In this document: positions 5,440 to 34,777 of the stretch, in pieces
Position numbering within the stretch: the first letter of the stretch is position 1
How the letters are laid out: every line of letters begins with the position of its first letter
Assembly: GCF_006538345.1 (NCBI RefSeq)
Contig: NZ_BJKL01000006.1
Span: 127,095-191,094 of the forward strand
Source: Alteromonas sp. KUL49
GTDB lineage: Bacteria > Pseudomonadota > Gammaproteobacteria > Enterobacterales > Alteromonadaceae
DNA: 64,000 bases
Direction: 5' to 3'
The notes under the pieces: generated by a model
Seen by the model: only the letters and a program-made list of their open reading frames with translations
The model's database searches: none
What the model was told of the DNA's origin: nothing
Program-made: the position numbers and the translations under genes

Positions 5440-5625
5440 CACAGAAACCAGCAACTGCTTTGCTAGCAAGCTGCCTAAAGGAGAATCTATGTTTCTATCG
5501 TGTTTTCCCGCACGAGAATACAAATTAGGTGGTTAGGCTGGTATCTGACTTGCCAACGAAACAGTGGCTTACAGTTGCGGGTACAGTTTTGGTTTTTCAC
5601 CAAATTCCCATTTAATTGCCTTTAA
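5440..5625 (-). promoter_or_regulatory. Cobalamin (AdoCbl) riboswitch in the leader of the btuD-btuC-cobTSUC-cobQ operon
   Basis: The minus-strand sequence reads ...GGTGAAAAACCAAAACTGTACCCGCAACTGTAAGCCACTGTTTCGTTGGCAAGTCAGATACCAGCC..., which contains the GGTGAAA..CC element and the B12 box GCCACTG. Boundaries are approximate. Confidence 0.75.
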
Positions 5626-5701
5626 AAACACAAAGACAAACCTGAACGCGGTTCGAGTGTATCAAGAGTGATGTGTACAAACCAGTGGTAATGATTCTTA
5701 A

Positions 5702-5923: not shown

Positions 5924-6111
5924 AAAAATACCTTTTTAAAAATAACAATCCATAGTGCTTCTAGAGTCTACTTTAACGCAAACCTTTCCTTGGACAAAAG
6001 CATATTGGACGAAATGTCATGCGATAGTCTCGTGTTTATCTTCATGAGTCGTTCTTTTTACGTTAACTTAAGAGTTAGCCCGCATATCTACAATTTGAAC
6101 AAGGACTCACC

Positions 6112-6987
6112 ATGTTTAATGGACTTTCAGCCTTTCCCATTACCCCATTCAAAAACGAAGCTATCGACTTCGATGCGTTTGAAAAAATTGTAGATAATTT
6201 AGTTGATGCGAAGGTAGATTCCATCTGTGCCATGGGGTCTACGGGTTTGTACCCCTATTTGAAACCCGACGAAATATTTCAAGTTGCTAAGAAAACGGTA
6301 GAAATTGCCAATGACGTTCCAGTAATGGCGGGAGTCGGTGCGCTTCGCACTGTGGATGTGCTGAAGAATGTTGAAGCGGCACAAAGGGCTGGCGTGAGCG
6401 CCGTGTTACTTGCCCCTGTGTCTTATCACCCGTTAAATGATCAAGAAGTCTTCTCTCTCTACGAAAAAGTTACTCAAGAACTATCTGTATCCCTATGTGT
6501 ATACGAGAATCCTAGAGTCACCCAGTTCACCTTCAGTGACGACCTCTATAAATCGATCACCCAACTCCCCAATGTTGGTGCTATCAAAATTCCAGGAATG
6601 CCTTTTGCCACGGACGAGGGCAATGCTCGGTTAGCCCAACTGAGAGCAATAGTTCCCTCAACTGTGGCTATAGGTGTGAGTGGGGACCAGTTTGGTGCTG
6701 CTGGCATGCAAGCAGGTTGCGATTTGTGGCTTTCAGTACTGGGAGGTTTGTTTCCACGCACAGTACAACGCCTAATAAGAGGTAGTGACATAGCGTCGCT
6801 TCAGCAAAAACTCACGCCTATGTGGCAATGTTTTGTTGAACATAAAGGGGGCTTACGAGTGATGGCAACGGCGGCAGCTATTCTAGGTTATAGCGAAAGT
6901 AATTGCTTACCTTCACCGCTATTACCAGTATCAGGTGAACACCGTGATGCCCTTGAGAAAATGTTAAATCTACTCGCGCTAGATTAG
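6112..6987 (+). CDS. Dihydrodipicolinate synthase / N-acetylneuraminate lyase family (class I aldolase) protein
   Basis: FPITPF...GSTGLYPYL... is a typical DapA-family N-terminus and the length is 291 aa. Confidence 0.8.
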   Translation: MFNGLSAFPITPFKNEAIDFDAFEKIVDNLVDAKVDSICAMGSTGLYPYLKPDEIFQVAKKTVEIANDVPVMAGVGALRTVDVLKNVEAAQRAGVSAVLLAPVSYHPLNDQEVFSLYEKVTQELSVSLCVYENPRVTQFTFSDDLYKSITQLPNVGAIKIPGMPFATDEGNARLAQLRAIVPSTVAIGVSGDQFGAAGMQAGCDLWLSVLGGLFPRTVQRLIRGSDIASLQQKLTPMWQCFVEHKGGLRVMATAAAILGYSESNCLPSPLLPVSGEHRDALEKMLNLLALD

Positions 6988-28233: not shown

Positions 28234-29055
28234 TTACCAAGTTGTATCTATCACAGCCCTGAACAGCGCATTGAGCACTTCAAAACTCACTTCTCTTGCT
28301 TCATTTCCAGCCGAAAAGGTTTCGAGACGTTCTAGTTCCGAATCGATAAATTGATTTATCACTGGAACTGCAGGCCCATACTCCTTTTCCATGATGACTT
28401 TTTTCTTAGCAAGTAAGCCGGAAATTGCATCGTTTAACACTTCATTTTCCGCAACCAGTGTACGCAACACATCAAACTCGATTGGTGCAGGTTCGTCATA
28501 GGTCTCTAACCATTTGATCGCGAGCAAAGGCCTAAGCACATAAAAATACTTCTTTAGCGGCACTGTATCTTTTTTCAAATAGCCACGAAAATTACCTCTC
28601 GCCATATGCAAATAGTGATAAATCCCCCTATGAGATGAAGCAATCGCAGGTAACAGCGCTCTGGATTTTTCTGCAAAGATGCCCTCGTTAACATAAACGA
28701 TAGGAGATTGAAGCCACTCAACAAACGCTGGATTGGACTTCCAGAAAAGTTTTAGTGCTTTTCGAATATCCCACCCATTGATATCGATTTCATCAACAAT
28801 TGGATATTCAATAACGTCTCGTTTGTTTTCAACATCGACAGCTAAATACCAATCACGCTCGTGTACGTAGATGAACCGAACATCATAATCACTATTGGGA
28901 CTTGCAAATCCCCACGCTCTGCTGCCTGACTCTATTGCATAAAGAACTTTGACTCCGTGCTCTTTTTCTGCAGCTTCGATACGACGCATAACCTCTTCTC
29001 GCACATTTGCATCGATGGCGTTTTCAACATTCACTCTAAACGCTTTATCTTCCAC
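28234..29055 (-). CDS. Pol-beta-superfamily nucleotidyltransferase of the type often linked to RNA-repair operons; last gene of the rtc operon
   Basis: GS-x-D-x-D motif (ESGSRAWGFASPNSDYDVRF). Its start overlaps the rtcA stop by 11 nt. Confidence 0.7.
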   Translation of the reverse strand: MEDKAFRVNVENAIDANVREEVMRRIEAAEKEHGVKVLYAIESGSRAWGFASPNSDYDVRFIYVHERDWYLAVDVENKRDVIEYPIVDEIDINGWDIRKALKLFWKSNPAFVEWLQSPIVYVNEGIFAEKSRALLPAIASSHRGIYHYLHMARGNFRGYLKKDTVPLKKYFYVLRPLLAIKWLETYDEPAPIEFDVLRTLVAENEVLNDAISGLLAKKKVIMEKEYGPAVPVINQFIDSELERLETFSAGNEAREVSFEVLNALFRAVIDTTW

Positions 29056-30094
29056 TTTCCTTACTCACTCTTATTCGCCAACGTCCTTCAGCTTCCTCAT
29101 GCACGTGTACACTGATATCTAGAAACTGCTTAATCACATCAATATTCGTTTTGGTGTGCATACTGAGCTCTGTTGTTGTGAACTCTCCTTCCCCGGCTAA
29201 CGCCATAGGAACCAAGAGTTGATCGGCTAAACGTTCTTCAACGGCAGCACCAACCTTTAAAAACTTTTTAACTCGTCCAGCACAGCGCTTGGCGACCCGC
29301 TCCGATGACACACCCACTTCACCGACTTGTTCAAACACACTGGTGAATACATCACCTTTAATTTTTGCTTGAAAGCTATTCCCTGGCCCATTGGTTTTGT
29401 ATCGCTCTACTTCACCCAGAGCTGCATTCCAGTTCAACGCTTTTCTGGCGGCTGTCACTTCTTTTTGACCAATGGTGTCAGGTAGTTCGCTCATTAGCGC
29501 CTTCAAATAACAATGCTTCTGCTCCTGTTCAAACTCCCTCCCTGGGGTCAGCAATGACATAGCTTTTAGTGTATCGGTCGGCTCAATAGTTAACGTCCAC
29601 TTGCCACCTCCAGCGGGGTAAAACCCAAGAGAAGTGGTCTCTACTTCAGTCTTGACTCCCATGGCATTGAGTACTGCCAAATACGACTCTTTGAAAAAGC
29701 AAAGGGAGGGAGACATACCGTTGTGGGTTCCACCTTCAAAGGTGATTGTTGACGAGCCTTTAGCAAGTGCTAACACCGGAAGTATGGTTTGTGCCACTAA
29801 AACCGTACTTCCGGCGGTACCAATCACAAAATGGTAATCTCCCGTTTTCACTACCCCCGGTGAAAACCTGATGCGTTCCGCCCCTAACTCAACGTCTTCG
29901 GCGCTAGCCTCGCTAATGGCTTGAGCCGCCTTGACTGATGTTAGGTGCTGGCGTAAAAGCCCAGGCCTGTCTCTGTTGGCTCTTATGTTTACCAACTCAA
30001 TAGGTGTTTGTGTTAGCACCGACAAAGTGAGTGCCGTCCTTAGCACTTGTCCGCCACCCTCTCCTTGAGAACCATCAATCACTAAAAAAGACAT
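29045..30094 (-). CDS. rtcA: RNA 3'-terminal phosphate cyclase
   Basis: MSFLVIDGSQGEGGGQVLRTALTLS... and a conserved His-containing region; 349 aa. Confidence 0.9.
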   Translation of the reverse strand: MSFLVIDGSQGEGGGQVLRTALTLSVLTQTPIELVNIRANRDRPGLLRQHLTSVKAAQAISEASAEDVELGAERIRFSPGVVKTGDYHFVIGTAGSTVLVAQTILPVLALAKGSSTITFEGGTHNGMSPSLCFFKESYLAVLNAMGVKTEVETTSLGFYPAGGGKWTLTIEPTDTLKAMSLLTPGREFEQEQKHCYLKALMSELPDTIGQKEVTAARKALNWNAALGEVERYKTNGPGNSFQAKIKGDVFTSVFEQVGEVGVSSERVAKRCAGRVKKFLKVGAAVEERLADQLLVPMALAGEGEFTTTELSMHTKTNIDVIKQFLDISVHVHEEAEGRWRIRVSKESGR

Positions 30095-30102
30095 ATTGCC
30101 TC

Positions 30103-31335
30103 CTACCCCTTAACACACACGACTTGTTTCAATGTGTAAACCACTTCCACTAAGTCTTTTTGCGCATCCATTACTTTCTCAATGTCTTTGTACGCATGTG
30201 GAATTTCATCTATCACTGACTCGTCTTTGCGACATTCCACACCCTGTGTTGCTTCAATTTGGTCTTTCACGCTATACACCTTTTTTGCCTTAGTGCGCGA
30301 CATGACTCTTCCCGCACCGTGGCTACAGCTGTTAAAGCTTTCAGGGTTTCCAAGGCCACGCACAATAAAAGAACGGGCGCCCATACTTCCAGGAATGATC
30401 CCTATTTCATCTTTTTCCGCTCTAACGGCTCCCTTTCGGGTAACGAAACAGTCTTTACCAAAGTGCTTCTCTCGCGAGATATAATTGTGGTGACAATTCA
30501 CCGCCAACTCCGCCGTCGAAAATGGAATAGGGATTTCTTTGCGAAGTGCTGAAATGGCGTTAATCATCATGATTTCGCGATTTTTCTTCGCATAGTCTTG
30601 TGCCCATTCCACAGCTTCAACATAGTCATCAAAATAATCATTTCCTTCAGACAAATAGGCCAAATCCATATCTGGCAAATTGATCTGGTGACGTTCCATT
30701 TCCTTTTTAGCCAGCTCAATGAAGTAAGTACCAATGCGGTTACCTACGCCACGACTACCAGAGTGCAACATGATCCAAACTGCATCATTTTCATCTAAGC
30801 AAAGCTCTAAAAAGTGATTTCCCGTTCCCATGGTACCCAAGTGGTTAACGTGATTACTCTTTCGAATTGCGGGATGCTTTTGGCAAATTTTTTCAAATCT
30901 CGCCTCTAACTTTTTCCACTCTCCTGCAACCACGTCAGGAATGTTTTGCCATGCACCTTTGTCCCTGCCTCTTTGCCCTCGTCTTCCACTTGTTCTTCCA
31001 TGGGGAACCGCGGCTTCGAATGCACTCCTTATACCAAACAGGTTGTCTGGCAACTGGCTTGCAGTAAGAGTGGTTTTGGTGGCTACCATGCCGCAACCTA
31101 TATCTACACCCACAGCAGCGGGGATAACCGCATCAACTGAAGGGATGACGCTACCAATGGTTGCCCCCTTGCCCATATGCACGTCTGGCATTACTGCGAT
31201 ATGCGAATGTACCAATGGCATACTGGCAATATTCTTTAACTGCTCTTGCGCTTGCTCTTCAAAAGGCACGCCTTTGGTCCATGCCTTAATGGTTGCCATT
31301 CCATCGTTTTCTATAACGTTGTAATTCTTACACAT
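30103..31335 (-). CDS. rtcB: RNA-splicing ligase RtcB (3'-phosphate/5'-OH ligase)
   Basis: 410 aa with His- and Cys-rich metal-site motifs typical of RtcB (…MPDVHMGKG…, …GIIPGSMGARSF…, …CSHGAGR…). Confidence 0.95.
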   Translation of the reverse strand: MCKNYNVIENDGMATIKAWTKGVPFEEQAQEQLKNIASMPLVHSHIAVMPDVHMGKGATIGSVIPSVDAVIPAAVGVDIGCGMVATKTTLTASQLPDNLFGIRSAFEAAVPHGRTSGRRGQRGRDKGAWQNIPDVVAGEWKKLEARFEKICQKHPAIRKSNHVNHLGTMGTGNHFLELCLDENDAVWIMLHSGSRGVGNRIGTYFIELAKKEMERHQINLPDMDLAYLSEGNDYFDDYVEAVEWAQDYAKKNREIMMINAISALRKEIPIPFSTAELAVNCHHNYISREKHFGKDCFVTRKGAVRAEKDEIGIIPGSMGARSFIVRGLGNPESFNSCSHGAGRVMSRTKAKKVYSVKDQIEATQGVECRKDESVIDEIPHAYKDIEKVMDAQKDLVEVVYTLKQVVCVKG

Positions 31336-31423: not shown

Positions 31424-32578
31424 CTAAGCGATTTTAACCAAGCTGTTAGTTAAGCCTTCTAAACCACCGTATACCGTTAAGCTATCAATGCGGTCAGCGA
31501 TTTTTTCAAGCGCCTCAAGTTCCTTTAAACGCATTAAGGTTGGGTTGTTTTCCATTACCTTTGCGGTGTTGTGCAAACTTCTTGTGGCAGAGGTTTCTTC
31601 TCTGCGTTTAATCACATTAGCTTCGGCCGCTTTTTGCGCCTCAACCACCTGATTCAATATGGCTTTCATTTCACCAGGTAAGATGATGTCTTTGACACCC
31701 ACATTAAGTAAGGACACACCGATAGCTTTTAGCTGTTGTACGACTAGCTCTTTAACTGTCTCATTGACGTACAACTTATCTAAAAGAATGTCGTCAAGGG
31801 TCTTGGTACCCACGGCCTCTCTTAGCGCCAACTGTAAGATCTTGTAGGCATAATCATCGACTTTATCCACACTTTGAGCGACTAGCTCAGTATCATCAAT
31901 CTTTATGCTCGCACTTAAGTTAATCCGTAAGCTCACGCGGTCCTTACTCAGAATCTCTTGACCTGAGACTTCCAACATCTTTGCCCGGCAATCAAAAGTT
32001 TTGAGTTCAACATCATGATTGAACTGCCAATAAGCGTGCCTACCCGGTGAAAGTCTCTTGATAAACTTACCGTCTACATACAAAAGACCCTCTTGATCTT
32101 TTGTCACCATAAGGTCGGCTATTGGCTTAGCAGCGACGGTGCGCTCGCTCCTAATCAATCTTGAAGCGCTATTTGCACCTGCTCGATTGATCAGAAACAT
32201 GAGTTGCTCATCAACTTCTAGATCTTCATCAACAACCAAGGTATCCAATCGGATATCACCGGCATCCTTCCAGAGGTATACATGTTCACTTGGCGCAACA
32301 ATGCCTCTCAGTAAGTCGTTAACATAAAGCAAACCCACTTGGTTGCTTTCTAGTTTCCAGTGAGAAACGTGTGCTTTAAGCACCTCACTATTGCGATACA
32401 AACGCTCGGCATTTCGCTCACTAAAATAGAGCTCATTAATATCGAACGTCACAAAATCATATTCTTTTTTGATATCCCAAATTTTATGCTTTCCTGGCAT
32501 AAGAACGTCAGTCAGCACTTGATTTTTAAACACTAAAACTCTCTGATTTTCGGTGACTAATTTGGTTACACTAAACAT
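31424..32578 (-). CDS. SPFH/band-7 (slipin-like) domain protein without a TM segment; first gene of the rtc operon
   Basis: The C-terminal half shows the SPFH pattern and a coiled-coil tail (…AQKAAEANVIKRREETSA…). The RBS AAGGAAAT precedes the ATG. Confidence 0.75.
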   Translation of the reverse strand: MFSVTKLVTENQRVLVFKNQVLTDVLMPGKHKIWDIKKEYDFVTFDINELYFSERNAERLYRNSEVLKAHVSHWKLESNQVGLLYVNDLLRGIVAPSEHVYLWKDAGDIRLDTLVVDEDLEVDEQLMFLINRAGANSASRLIRSERTVAAKPIADLMVTKDQEGLLYVDGKFIKRLSPGRHAYWQFNHDVELKTFDCRAKMLEVSGQEILSKDRVSLRINLSASIKIDDTELVAQSVDKVDDYAYKILQLALREAVGTKTLDDILLDKLYVNETVKELVVQQLKAIGVSLLNVGVKDIILPGEMKAILNQVVEAQKAAEANVIKRREETSATRSLHNTAKVMENNPTLMRLKELEALEKIADRIDSLTVYGGLEGLTNSLVKIA

Positions 32579-32754
32579 TTTCTATTTCCTTTTTGTTCAG
32601 CTTTAAACGGTGTTAGTAAGGGTTAATTACTTGGCAAACAAAGGTGTGAAGCTTTGTAATAACAGGGAGCCTCCTGCTTGCTGTTAATCATCAACCTCTT
32701 ACGTGTGCTAGCCAGTGGTAATAACAACTTACTAACTGTGTATCTAACATTGTG

Positions 32755-32828
32755 TTTTTTGGGTGGGACTCGAACCCACAACATCCGAATTAATTGTTCG
32801 GAGCTCTACCTGTTTGAGCTACCTAGAA
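32755..32828 (-). ncRNA. tRNA-like element 1; it has no encoded CCA and a degenerate acceptor stem
   Basis: Minus strand: TA GCTC-AAACAGGTA-GAGC T CCGAA-CAATTAA-TTCGG ATGTT GTGGG-TTCGAGT-CCCAC CCAAAAAA. D- and T-arms are perfect, but the anticodon loop lacks U33. Its 5' end abuts element 2. Confidence 0.5.
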
Positions 32829-32899
32829 TTTAAGGAAGGATTCGAACCTTCGCCGACGGCATTTTTAAGCCGTTGCTCTATCCTCTGAGCTACTTAAAT
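32827..32899 (-). ncRNA. tRNA-like element 2; full cloverleaf with an 8-nt anticodon loop and no encoded CCA
   Basis: Minus strand: ATTTAAG TA GCTC-AGAGGATA-GAGC A ACGGC-TTAAAAAT-GCCGT CGGC GAAGG-TTCGAAT-CCTTC CTTAAAT T. The acceptor, D and T stems all pair perfectly. Confidence 0.55.
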
Positions 32900-32929
32900 A
32901 GTTGTTTGATTAGGCATACGCAGTGACCA

Positions 32930-32943
32930 CTTGCTCAAGCAAG
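32930..32943. promoter_or_regulatory. Perfect palindrome CTTGCT-CA-AGCAAG, upstream of the tRNA-like elements in the rtcR / rtc-operon intergenic region
   Basis: Seen directly in the sequence. This is a candidate enhancer or operator site and is speculative. Confidence 0.3.
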
Positions 32944-33169
32944 GTCAGAGCGCACCGGAGTGATGTGTGAATCACAACCTCATAATCAGACACTCTATAC
33001 ATATCAAGTCGTGTACCAAACTCTTAAAAGTAGAAATAAAAATTAATAAATAATTGATTAATAAAAATTTATTAAGGATTTATGCTGGTATCCGTTAATC
33101 TCTTATAGATTTTCAAAACAGAAAAAAGTAATCTTAAAGATATAAATATATCTACTTGGATACACTATA

Positions 33170-34777
33170 TTGAACAAAAAAACAGTAGCGGTGAGTTTAA
33201 TCGGCTCACAACTGGATTTTGTGGGGAAGCGCGTCGACCGATGGGCGAGATGGCGTCCAAACGTAAGTTTGTGTAGCCAAGACAACTTAGTGATTGACCA
33301 GCTCCACATGCTGCATGACAACCATTCGGAACGTTTAGCGAATAACGTCGCTGTCGATATTGAGAGTGTATCCCCTGAAACAAGCGTGAGTTTGCACAAC
33401 GTTAACTTCAATGATCCATGGGACTTTGAAGAAGTGTATTCCAAGCTCTACGACTGGTGTCATCGCCAAACCTTTGATACTGATACAAACGACTACCTGT
33501 TTCATATCACAACGGGTACCCACGTTGTGCAAATTTGCAGTTACCTGCTTACCGAGAGCCGTCATTTTCCGGGACGACTTATTCAGACCTCTCCCGATAA
33601 ATACAACAAAAATCGATCGATTGGGCGTACACAGATCATCGACCTCGACTTGTCTAAGTATGACCAGTTGGCGACTCGATTCGACCGCGAGCATTTAGAG
33701 GGTAAAGCGTTTCTAAAAGGTGGTATCCAAACCAAAAACGGCGATTTTAACCGGCTGATTAGTCAGATTGAGAAAGTTGCTATTCGTTCTAGCGATCCAA
33801 TGCTACTCACTGGCCCCACTGGGGCAGGTAAAAGCCAATTAGCCACCCGTATTTTTCAACTCAAAAAACGCCGCTCTATGCTGAAGGGGGATTTGGTCTC
33901 GGTAAATTGCGCAACCCTAAAAGGCGAAAACGCGATGGCCGCGCTATTCGGCCATACACGGGGAGCATTCACAGGCGCTCAGAAGGAAAGAAGCGGATAC
34001 CTACTTACCGCCAATAAAGGGGTATTATTTTTAGATGAAATTGGTGAACTTGGCCTTGAAGAGCAGGCTATGTTACTCCATGCCATCGAGAACAAGTCTT
34101 TCCATCCCGTTGGGAGTGATCGCACTGTAGAAAGTGACTTCCAACTTATCGCCGGTACTAACAAAGACCTCAAAGATGAAGTTCACAAAGGAAGGTTCAG
34201 AGAAGACTTACTCGCGAGGATAAATCTGTGGACGTATAAATTACCTGCGCTCAAAGAACGAAAGGAAGATATTCCTGCAAATATTGATTACGAGATTGAG
34301 GTTTACGCACAAAAGAACAGCCAGCGCGTGCAATTTAATAAAGAGGCGAAGCTAGCTTTTGAAAAGTTTGCGGTATCACCAGAGGCGGTTTGGTCTGGTA
34401 ACTTTCGCGATCTAAGCTCAGCCGTTACTAGACTTTGCACACTGGCAGACTCTTCTCGTATATCTGTTGATGATGTTGAAGAAGAAATCGAGCGATTACG
34501 TGCTTCCTGGCAAACTTCAAGCGAAGCTCTTACCGTAAATCACCTCAACAGGTATTTAACTGAGGAGCAGATAGCAAACCTAGACGACTTCGATATTCAT
34601 CAACTCAGTTACGTTGTATCTGTGTGTCAACGTCACAATAGTATGGCGTCTGCTGGACGAGAGCTTTTTAACGTGAGTCGCACTAAAAAAGCACAAACCA
34701 ATGATTCAACGCGTCTACAAAAATACCTCAGCAAGTTTGGTTTGAAATGGGCACAGCTAACAAAAAGCCCGCAGTAA
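33170..34777 (+). CDS. rtcR: Sigma-54-dependent transcriptional activator RtcR (CARF-like N-terminal domain + AAA+ + HTH); TTG start
   Basis: It aligns end to end with E. coli RtcR as I recall that sequence: KTVA..G..LD, HITTGTH, GAFTGA sigma-54 contact motif and Walker A GPTGAGKS. Confidence 0.9.
   Translation: MNKKTVAVSLIGSQLDFVGKRVDRWARWRPNVSLCSQDNLVIDQLHMLHDNHSERLANNVAVDIESVSPETSVSLHNVNFNDPWDFEEVYSKLYDWCHRQTFDTDTNDYLFHITTGTHVVQICSYLLTESRHFPGRLIQTSPDKYNKNRSIGRTQIIDLDLSKYDQLATRFDREHLEGKAFLKGGIQTKNGDFNRLISQIEKVAIRSSDPMLLTGPTGAGKSQLATRIFQLKKRRSMLKGDLVSVNCATLKGENAMAALFGHTRGAFTGAQKERSGYLLTANKGVLFLDEIGELGLEEQAMLLHAIENKSFHPVGSDRTVESDFQLIAGTNKDLKDEVHKGRFREDLLARINLWTYKLPALKERKEDIPANIDYEIEVYAQKNSQRVQFNKEAKLAFEKFAVSPEAVWSGNFRDLSSAVTRLCTLADSSRISVDDVEEEIERLRASWQTSSEALTVNHLNRYLTEEQIANLDDFDIHQLSYVVSVCQRHNSMASAGRELFNVSRTKKAQTNDSTRLQKYLSKFGLKWAQLTKSPQ

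Follow-up and report, generated by a model that had tools for sequence, protein, structure and literature searches.

Two tandem tRNA-like elements upstream of a slipin gene in an Alteromonas RNA-repair locus, very probably members of the predicted b7a-tRNA class

What are the two tandem, tRNA-shaped elements that lie between rtcR and the RNA-repair operon of Alteromonas sp. KUL49? The question arises from a 64,000-nucleotide stretch of contig NZ_BJKL01000006.1 (hereafter the window), in which an earlier inspection of the letters alone (the sequence-only reading) had described two back-to-back elements on the minus strand, derived from tRNA but unable to decode. Our analysis suggests that they very probably belong to the b7a-tRNAs (band 7-associated tRNAs), a class predicted by Burroughs & Aravind 2016 (Nucleic Acids Res 44:8525), which a preprint (bioRxiv 10.1101/312249) describes as a predicted non-coding RNA (ncRNA) that strongly resembles tRNA and is encoded beside a Band-7/SPFH protein and RtcB. 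Thus, the tRNA-like elements are of a kind already in the literature and not of a new kind, since the pairing of such an RNA with a Band-7 gene had already been predicted and named. The abstract of the original prediction is said to speak of SPFH/Band-7 modules with ‘a novel tRNA-like molecule’. Literature searches yielded no later experimental study of b7a-tRNA, nor any of slipin in combination with RtcB, the other papers examined from the Burroughs & Aravind group do not mention the Band-7 RNA, and Rfam 15 holds no family for the class.

Both elements fold as cloverleaves on the minus strand, element 2 (‘class B’) at 32827-32899 and element 1 (‘class C’) at 32755-32828, and each was delimited by ARAGORN, the Rfam tRNA model, our family covariance model R1 (see below) and a position-by-position parse. 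They are the only tRNA-like genes called by ARAGORN in the 64-kb window, at 32826-32899 (-), labelled tRNA-??? with the 4-base ‘anticodon’ aaaa, and at 32754-32828 (-), labelled ‘Asn’ with anticodon att. Against Rfam tRNA (RF00005, gathering score 29), element 2 scored 59.4 bits (E 2.5e-10) and element 1, searched without its overlapping neighbour, 47.8 bits (E 1.5e-09), both above the gathering score, while R1 gave 79.1 and 71.8 bits, respectively. According to the parse, element 2 displays an A/U-rich acceptor stem with 7/7 pairs (ATTTAAG/CTTAAAT), a D stem GCTC/GAGC, an anticodon stem ACGGC/GCCGT with an 8-nt loop (TTAAAAAT), and a T arm GAAGG-TTCGAAT-CCTTC followed by the discriminator T and then CTA. 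Element 1 displays an acceptor stem TTCTAGG/CCAAAAA with 5/7 pairs, the same D stem GCTC/GAGC, an anticodon stem CCGAA/TTCGG, a 7-nt loop CAATTAA that has A at position 33 and therefore no U33, and a T arm GTGGG-TTCGAGT-CCCAC followed by the discriminator A and then CAC. CCA is encoded by neither element. ARAGORN, Rfam tRNA and the parse thus bear out two tandem, non-decoding, tRNA-derived elements with the stems and loops originally described and no CCA. The accompanying claim that element 1 shares its 5′ acceptor strand with the end of element 2 and pairs at 5 of 7 positions was right about the pairing, but the overlap amounts to 2 nt only (32827-32828) and not to the whole strand. A third, degenerate element was sought in the 5′ leader and the 3′ spacer of the window and not found, other R1 matches remaining below 5 bits with filters off.

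Are these elements conserved, and as what? A scan with the slipin protein encoded downstream, using one genome per species, yielded 78 related loci (L001-L078; 79 with the window), which span Alteromonadales, Vibrionales, other Gammaproteobacteria, Planctomycetota, Myxococcota and a Leptospiraceae genome bin. ARAGORN alone called 1-3 tandem tRNA-like genes a few hundred nt upstream of slipin in most loci, and 74 ARAGORN-found elements were used to build R1. By R1 or ARAGORN, 1-3 elements lie on the same strand and 160-860 nt upstream of slipin in 69 of the 78 related loci (70/79 with the window). With R1, the slipin-linked elements mostly scored 55-81 bits, versus 27-51 bits for the genuine tRNAs of these loci. 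Note that lowering the ARAGORN threshold gave long false calls, which were left out of the statistics. In a MAFFT alignment that was not fitted to structure, 85% of the helix cells were paired in the acceptor stem, 97.5% in the D stem and 99% in the T stem, with changes on both sides in 19 of 21 pairs and a covariation score of 0.484 versus at most 0.25 for slid controls, although relatedness among the sequences inflates such covariation counts. The anticodon helix appeared only ~44% paired in both the MAFFT and the R1-fitted alignments, which is an alignment artefact, as this helix aligns badly because the loop length varies. When each sequence was parsed on its own, a 5-pair anticodon stem was found in 74 of 83 unique elements, with 46 distinct stem sequences, against 6.6% of shuffled controls. 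Many genera also retain the residues of the D loop and the T loop that give tRNA its L-shape, and neighbouring elements abut or overlap by 2-3 nt at 10 junctions. Our results demonstrate that each element is a self-contained cloverleaf under selection for structure, since the stems, including the anticodon stems parsed per sequence, are kept by compensatory change. A search for compensatory changes in related genomes had been named beforehand as a check, and what it returned was stems maintained through such changes, neither ordinary tRNAs nor elements missing from the relatives.

Do the elements decode? Among 84 unique, well-parsed elements, the anticodon loop has 4, 5, 6, 7, 8 or 9 nt in 6, 20, 11, 43, 2 and 2 elements, respectively; a 7-nt loop with both U33 and R37 is found in only 22, G at position 1 in 16 and all seven acceptor pairs in only 20. 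Of 75 elements, 16 still had a loop of 6 or 8 nt in the more conservative parse of ARAGORN. Moreover, the ‘anticodons’ reported by ARAGORN vary between close relatives, stop anticodons included (tca, tgg, tcg, tag and aaaa at one orthologous position; tta, ttt, agt and att at the other). Because the anticodon loop varies both in sequence and in length (4-9 nt), the elements do not decode. The sequence-only reading had cautioned that a homopolymer indel might disguise the loop of element 2; such an indel is indeed possible, but it is not needed as an explanation, loops of 4-9 nt being normal in the family. An encoded CCA follows the discriminator in 19 of the 84 elements, versus ~1.3 expected at 1/64. 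We also observed a Met/Ile-like loop, CTCATAA, in four distant loci (L051 at 5612, L052 at 5604, L055 at 2288 and L077 at 2090). In addition, the loop of the last element in many gammaproteobacterial loci ends in ..TTAA (U36-A37-A38), like tRNAs for ANN codons, and the window loop CAATTAA fits this pattern, which may reflect ancestry or a retained modification determinant.

To which neighbour are the elements tied? RtcR, RtcB, RtcA and RlaP had been recognized correctly from the outset, but the adjoining Band_7/slipin gene had been missed. In the window, the elements end 177 nt upstream of this gene on the same strand, the minus-strand order downstream of them being Band_7/slipin, rtcB, rtcA and rlaP, with rtcR divergent. 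In the related loci, where neighbouring genes were located by tblastn with the window proteins, RtcB is adjacent in about 55 of 78 and is thus not universal; as in the window, slipin is the first gene of an rtcB-rtcA-rlaP repair operon beside rtcR in most relatives. In five loci (L051, L052, L054, L055 and L077), rtcB precedes the tRNA-like element, which in turn precedes slipin, and in about twenty others (L047-50, L053, L057-65, L071-72 and L078) the element precedes slipin without RtcR or RtcB within 6 kb. In L047, L057, L058 and L072, slipin (at 6001) and the element, ~360-480 nt ahead of it, stand among unrelated neighbours (thiamine biosynthesis, sensor kinase, sulfotransferase, Rieske oxygenase and ClpB-like ATPase), and RtcB, RtcA and RtcR are all absent within 6 kb. 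The elements are therefore conserved at this position in relatives, but they are linked to the slipin gene and not to the rtcR-rtc junction. Indeed, a stand-alone pair among unrelated genes makes the tRNA-like element and slipin a module in its own right. In Planctomycetota and deltaproteobacterial loci, namely L068, L069 (slipin at ~5980-6672) and L070 (5920-6690), the order is RtcR, short slipin and RtcB; these short slipins (~235-256 aa) have no N-terminal extension of ~150 residues, and no full tRNA-like or YrlA element was found in the three loci by R1, ARAGORN at default settings or Rfam at gathering and E-value thresholds. Since the element follows slipin without RtcB and is absent beside the short slipins, these observations point to slipin, perhaps via its N-terminal extension, as the partner of the tRNA-like RNA.

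What does the operon encode, and how might it be transcribed? The slipin/Band-7 (SPFH) protein of the window (384 aa; 31424-32578, minus strand) carries Pfam Band_7 at residues 158-328 (E 1.4e-27) and is 100% identical to the slipin of Alteromonas sp. KUL49. Its N-terminal extension (about residues 1-150) is beta-rich, and an AlphaFold2 model (pLDDT 75) shows N-terminal beta-hairpin-rich repeats, then the SPFH domain and then a long helix. A Foldseek search of this model against the PDB returned SPFH proteins only (stomatin, HflK/C, prohibitin and related proteins), of which the nearest solved ones build large rings or cages, and the same search identified no RNA-binding fold for the N-terminal extension. 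On the same strand follow the RtcB RNA ligase (30103-31335; Pfam RtcB, E 1.1e-126), the RtcA RNA 3′-phosphate cyclase (29045-30094; Pfam RTC, E 6.3e-74) and RlaP, a nucleotidyltransferase of the RNA repair pathway Pol-beta family (28234-29055; Pfam RlaP, E 2.2e-87). The sigma-54 activator RtcR, whose N-terminal domain is of CARF type, is encoded on the plus strand (33170-34777; Pfam RtcR, E 3e-79; Sigma54_activat, E 1.2e-47). Divergent from it, a sigma-54-type promoter-like motif, TGGTACACGACTTGA (-24 GG / -12 TTGA), can be read at 33004-33018 on the minus strand as a putative promoter, and in 24 related loci this motif, TGGCAC-N5-TTGA, precedes the first tRNA-like element by 99-161 nt. No sigma-70-like site was found in 32400-33300. 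Co-transcription of the tRNA-like elements with the operon would be the simplest reading, since the minus strand shows no terminator-like site from the promoter-like motif to the start of slipin. Elsewhere in the window, a cobalamin riboswitch at 5519-5660 (-) (Rfam RF00174, 72.7 bits) is unrelated to the tRNA-like elements.

The tRNA-like elements are embedded in a leader of roughly 410 nt with two further structured domains, the order being a 5′ domain of three helices, then the tRNA-like modules (one to three) and finally a 3′ hairpin domain of 130 nt. The 5′ domain (32900-32995, minus strand), identified with RNAalifold and the covariance model R2, lies between the sigma-54-like motif and the first tRNA-like element. 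It consists of an outer helix GUCUGAUU/AAUCAAAC, a hairpin GUGAU-UCACAC-AUCAC and a third helix GUGCGC/GCGUAU, whose apical hairpin varies; only the window and L001 have 14 nt more in this third helix, inserted as an additional hairpin. RNAalifold gave 15 pairs for this domain, 7 of them with compensatory changes, and R2 matches 52 loci; on the R2 alignment, which is fitted to the model and thereby favours structure, 95.3% of cells are paired (slid controls 21-55%) and 11 of 15 pairs show changes on both sides. The 3′ domain (32606-32738, minus strand), identified with RNAalifold and model R3, lies downstream of the last tRNA-like element and ahead of the slipin start codon. It forms a long bulged hairpin with an outer helix UUAGUAAG...CUUACUAA and a conserved cap GCAAGCAGGAGGCUCCC, for which the consensus GCAAGCAGGAKGCUCCC is near-invariant. 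On a plain MAFFT alignment, RNAalifold gave 40 pairs, 34 with compensatory changes. R3 matches 48 loci, and on the R3 alignment 90.3% of cells are paired (slid controls 31-44%), with changes on both sides in 36 of 40 pairs and a covariation score of 0.71 versus at most 0.14 for slid controls. Neither domain has a match in Rfam, even at E-values up to 1-10. Both domains are present in L047, where RtcR and RtcB are not nearby, and in L051 and L055 R2 matches weakly in the interval that separates rtcB from the tRNA-like element; thus, the leader domains also travel with the unit of tRNA-like element and slipin.

What, then, would such RNAs do? The explanation that we moderately favour is that the elements are b7a-tRNAs that act as the RNA partner of slipin in an RtcB repair particle, by analogy with Ro and YrlA. 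Upon RtcR activation, the leader would be transcribed with the operon from the RtcR-dependent sigma-54 promoter, and the tRNA-like modules would fold into L-shapes recognized by tRNA-handling enzymes, as with YrlA. These RNAs would then be the partner of an oligomeric slipin, probably through its N-terminal extension, and the resulting ribonucleoprotein might scaffold or assist RtcB, RtcA and RlaP in repairing cleaved tRNA-like substrates. Such a role would parallel that proposed for Ro and YrlA in Salmonella. Several points weigh against this explanation. According to the Wolin laboratory's 2018 preprint (bioRxiv 10.1101/312249), the b7a-tRNA class still awaited experimental validation, and its definition is taken here second-hand from the summary in that preprint. 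At this locus, expression, processing and slipin binding are predictions, and the covariation counts are inflated as mentioned above. The match between the N-terminal extension and the RNA relies on few, phylogenetically clustered loci. Finally, a variable anticodon arm fits equally well with an arm not contacted by the partner, with diversifying selection and with a pure processing-signal role. A broader version, which we put forward tentatively and regard as rather doubtful, would take the whole ~410-nt leader as one multi-domain ncRNA system that assembles with a soluble, cage-forming SPFH protein into an RNA-repair ribonucleoprotein, a counterpart of Ro-Y RNA or of vaults, in which the tRNA-like modules would be templates or docking sites for RtcB, RtcA and RlaP and the flanking domains would be undescribed RNA motifs.

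Could the tRNA-like modules instead be decoy substrates for anticodon nucleases, or sensors for RtcR? Indeed, Hughes et al. 2020 found that tRNA 5′ fragments with cyclic phosphate ends activate RtcR and proposed competitive inhibition of the nuclease for YrlA. Within the element, the anticodon loop evolves fastest although it sits on a maintained stem, the pattern expected of an arms race, and both the ..TTAA ending of the last elements, which is that of Lys, Asn, Ile, Met and Thr tRNAs, and the recurrence of CTCATAA in four distant loci would suit a bait. However, about half of the loops have 4-6 or 8-9 nt and most 7-nt loops do not combine U33 with R37, which makes them poor mimics of an anticodon loop. 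In addition, some loci have the element beside slipin but neither RtcR nor RtcB nearby, the position of the element downstream of an RtcR-dependent promoter would leave it scarce before induction, and no YrlA fragments were detected in Salmonella after nuclease induction (Hughes et al. 2020). Decoys or sensors therefore seem to us an unlikely account of the elements.

It is likewise improbable, in our view, that the modules are mainly cleavage signals for RNase P and RNase Z (or RNase E) within the leader, whose cuts would free the 5′ domain as a separate small RNA and leave the 3′ domain as a stabilizing 5′ end of the slipin-rtcBA mRNA, the tRNA-shaped by-products having no role of their own. 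Such punctuation would account for elements that sit exactly between two independently conserved structured domains and that abut or overlap by 2-3 nt at the 10 junctions mentioned above, as well as for the conservation of what RNase P and RNase Z require (acceptor stem, T arm and L-shape) while the anticodon loop is free. As a precedent, Chen et al. 2014 describe M. smegmatis YrlA as cleaved by RNase P and as receiving CCA. Nevertheless, the elements persist in distant loci (L048 onward) with few or no R2 and R3 matches, and the 5-bp anticodon stem is kept by compensatory change though RNase P does not need it. Moreover, the excess of encoded CCA (19/84 versus ~1.3 by chance) suggests that the tRNA-shaped product itself matters.

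A degenerate or permuted Y RNA of the YrlA/YrlB type, in which the 3′ half of element 2 and the 5′ half of element 1 would form a YrlA-like tRNA domain, appears very improbable. It is true that in the Salmonella operon rsr-yrlBA-rtcBA, YrlA and YrlB occupy the place held here by the tRNA-like elements, and the sequence-only reading had rightly pointed to this position and to the missing Ro protein: no Ro/TROVE domain was found in the scanned operon open reading frames (Band_7, RtcB, RTC and RlaP), the rest of the window not having been scanned protein by protein. The Rfam YrlA model (RF02553) does align across both elements (33.2 bits, E 3.9e-05; window 32775-32873, minus strand), covering the T arm of element 2 and the D arm of element 1, but this score lies far under the gathering score of 69, and the likeness is confined to generic D-arm and T-arm sequence. 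The only GNCGAAN0-1G motif, the motif proposed for Ro binding in bacterial Y RNAs, is GGCGAAGG at 32847-32854 (-), in the variable region and T stem of element 2 and not near the 5′ end; with no Ro gene in the operon, this match may be due to chance. As a separate observation, the orthologous ‘class B’ elements of L001-L004, L007 and L073 retain TGGCGAAGG. Acceptor and anticodon stems are closed within each element and show covariation, whereas the anticodon-stem strands that a cross-element fold would bring together (GCCGU and CCGAA) are not complementary. Membership in YrlA was thus rejected for the sub-threshold score, the absence of Ro from the operon and the unpermuted fold, and the earlier idea of degenerate Y-RNA modules does not hold. 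Note that the T-arm-then-D-arm order of the alignment is the one that a permuted tRNA would take from a tandem pair; we may speculate that the permuted tRNA-like domain of YrlA arose from tandem b7a-tRNAs, with one copy contributing its 3′ half and the following copy its 5′ half. Lastly, ordinary or suppressor tRNA genes with sequencing errors, or decaying tRNA pseudogenes, are hardly tenable: high Rfam tRNA scores, the A5 run in the loop of element 2, which could hide an indel, and the anticodons of some relatives (TTA and TCA), which could read stop codons, speak for them, but 4-9 nt loops, missing U33, A/U at position 1 and imperfect acceptors recur in independent assemblies from dozens of genera, the ‘anticodon’ differs between close relatives, and stems kept through compensatory change over large distances exclude decay, so that both candidates were rejected for the loop features of the family and these stem changes.

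The slipin-partner reading matters because the b7a-tRNA class has remained a prediction since 2016, and because it bears on what bacterial RtcB operons repair and on the role of their accessory RNAs and proteins. The window and its 78 relatives provide a testable picture (i.e., a conserved tRNA-shaped body, a free anticodon loop, a tight coupling to slipin even without RtcB and a leader with two more covarying domains absent from Rfam), and defined constructs are now at hand for pull-down, structural and genetic work. P. aeruginosa PA14 has been reported with an SPFH gene (PaFlo8) inside its rtc locus, which offers a tractable relative.

How do the elements compare with known systems? They share with canonical tRNA (RF00005) U8, A14, the GG of the D loop, the TTCRANT T loop and the G53-C61 pair. 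In contrast, their anticodon loops have 8 nt (element 2) or 7 nt without U33 (element 1), they start with A1 or U1, their acceptor stems are A/U-rich or mismatched and no CCA is encoded, their anticodon varies among orthologues, and they lie inside an mRNA leader. With YrlA, they have in common that a non-decoding tRNA mimic with conserved D-arm and T-arm sequences stands in an RtcR-controlled RtcB operon, and that the proposed role is that of a cofactor of RNA repair or decay. However, YrlA is permuted (the T arm precedes the D arm, the ‘acceptor’ is a closed hairpin and the open ends make up the Ro-binding stem) and is bound by Ro/Rsr, whereas the window elements are unpermuted cloverleaves with an open acceptor stem and a closed anticodon stem in an operon without a Ro gene. 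The vault particle is composed of MVP, vault RNA and the TROVE protein TEP1, and MVP forms a cage and contains an SPFH-like fold. The common point here would be a cage-forming SPFH-fold protein with a small non-coding RNA, as the nearest solved SPFH relatives of slipin are rings or cages; this likeness lies in the protein fold.

It is with the b7a-tRNAs that the agreement is closest. The window elements are tRNA-like by Rfam tRNA and ARAGORN, they adjoin a Band-7 (SPFH) gene on the same strand, and the slipin-rtcB-rtcA-rlaP operon next to rtcR gives the association with an RNA-repair ligase; among the features compared, none contradicted membership. To this description our analysis adds tandem arrays of 1-3 copies that overlap by 2-3 nt, loops of 4-9 nt on a kept 5-bp anticodon stem, stand-alone pairs of tRNA-like element and slipin without RtcB, and two flanking structured domains. 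Altogether, the two covarying leader domains and the anatomy of the family (tandem overlap, loop plasticity and stand-alone slipin pairing) may be new.

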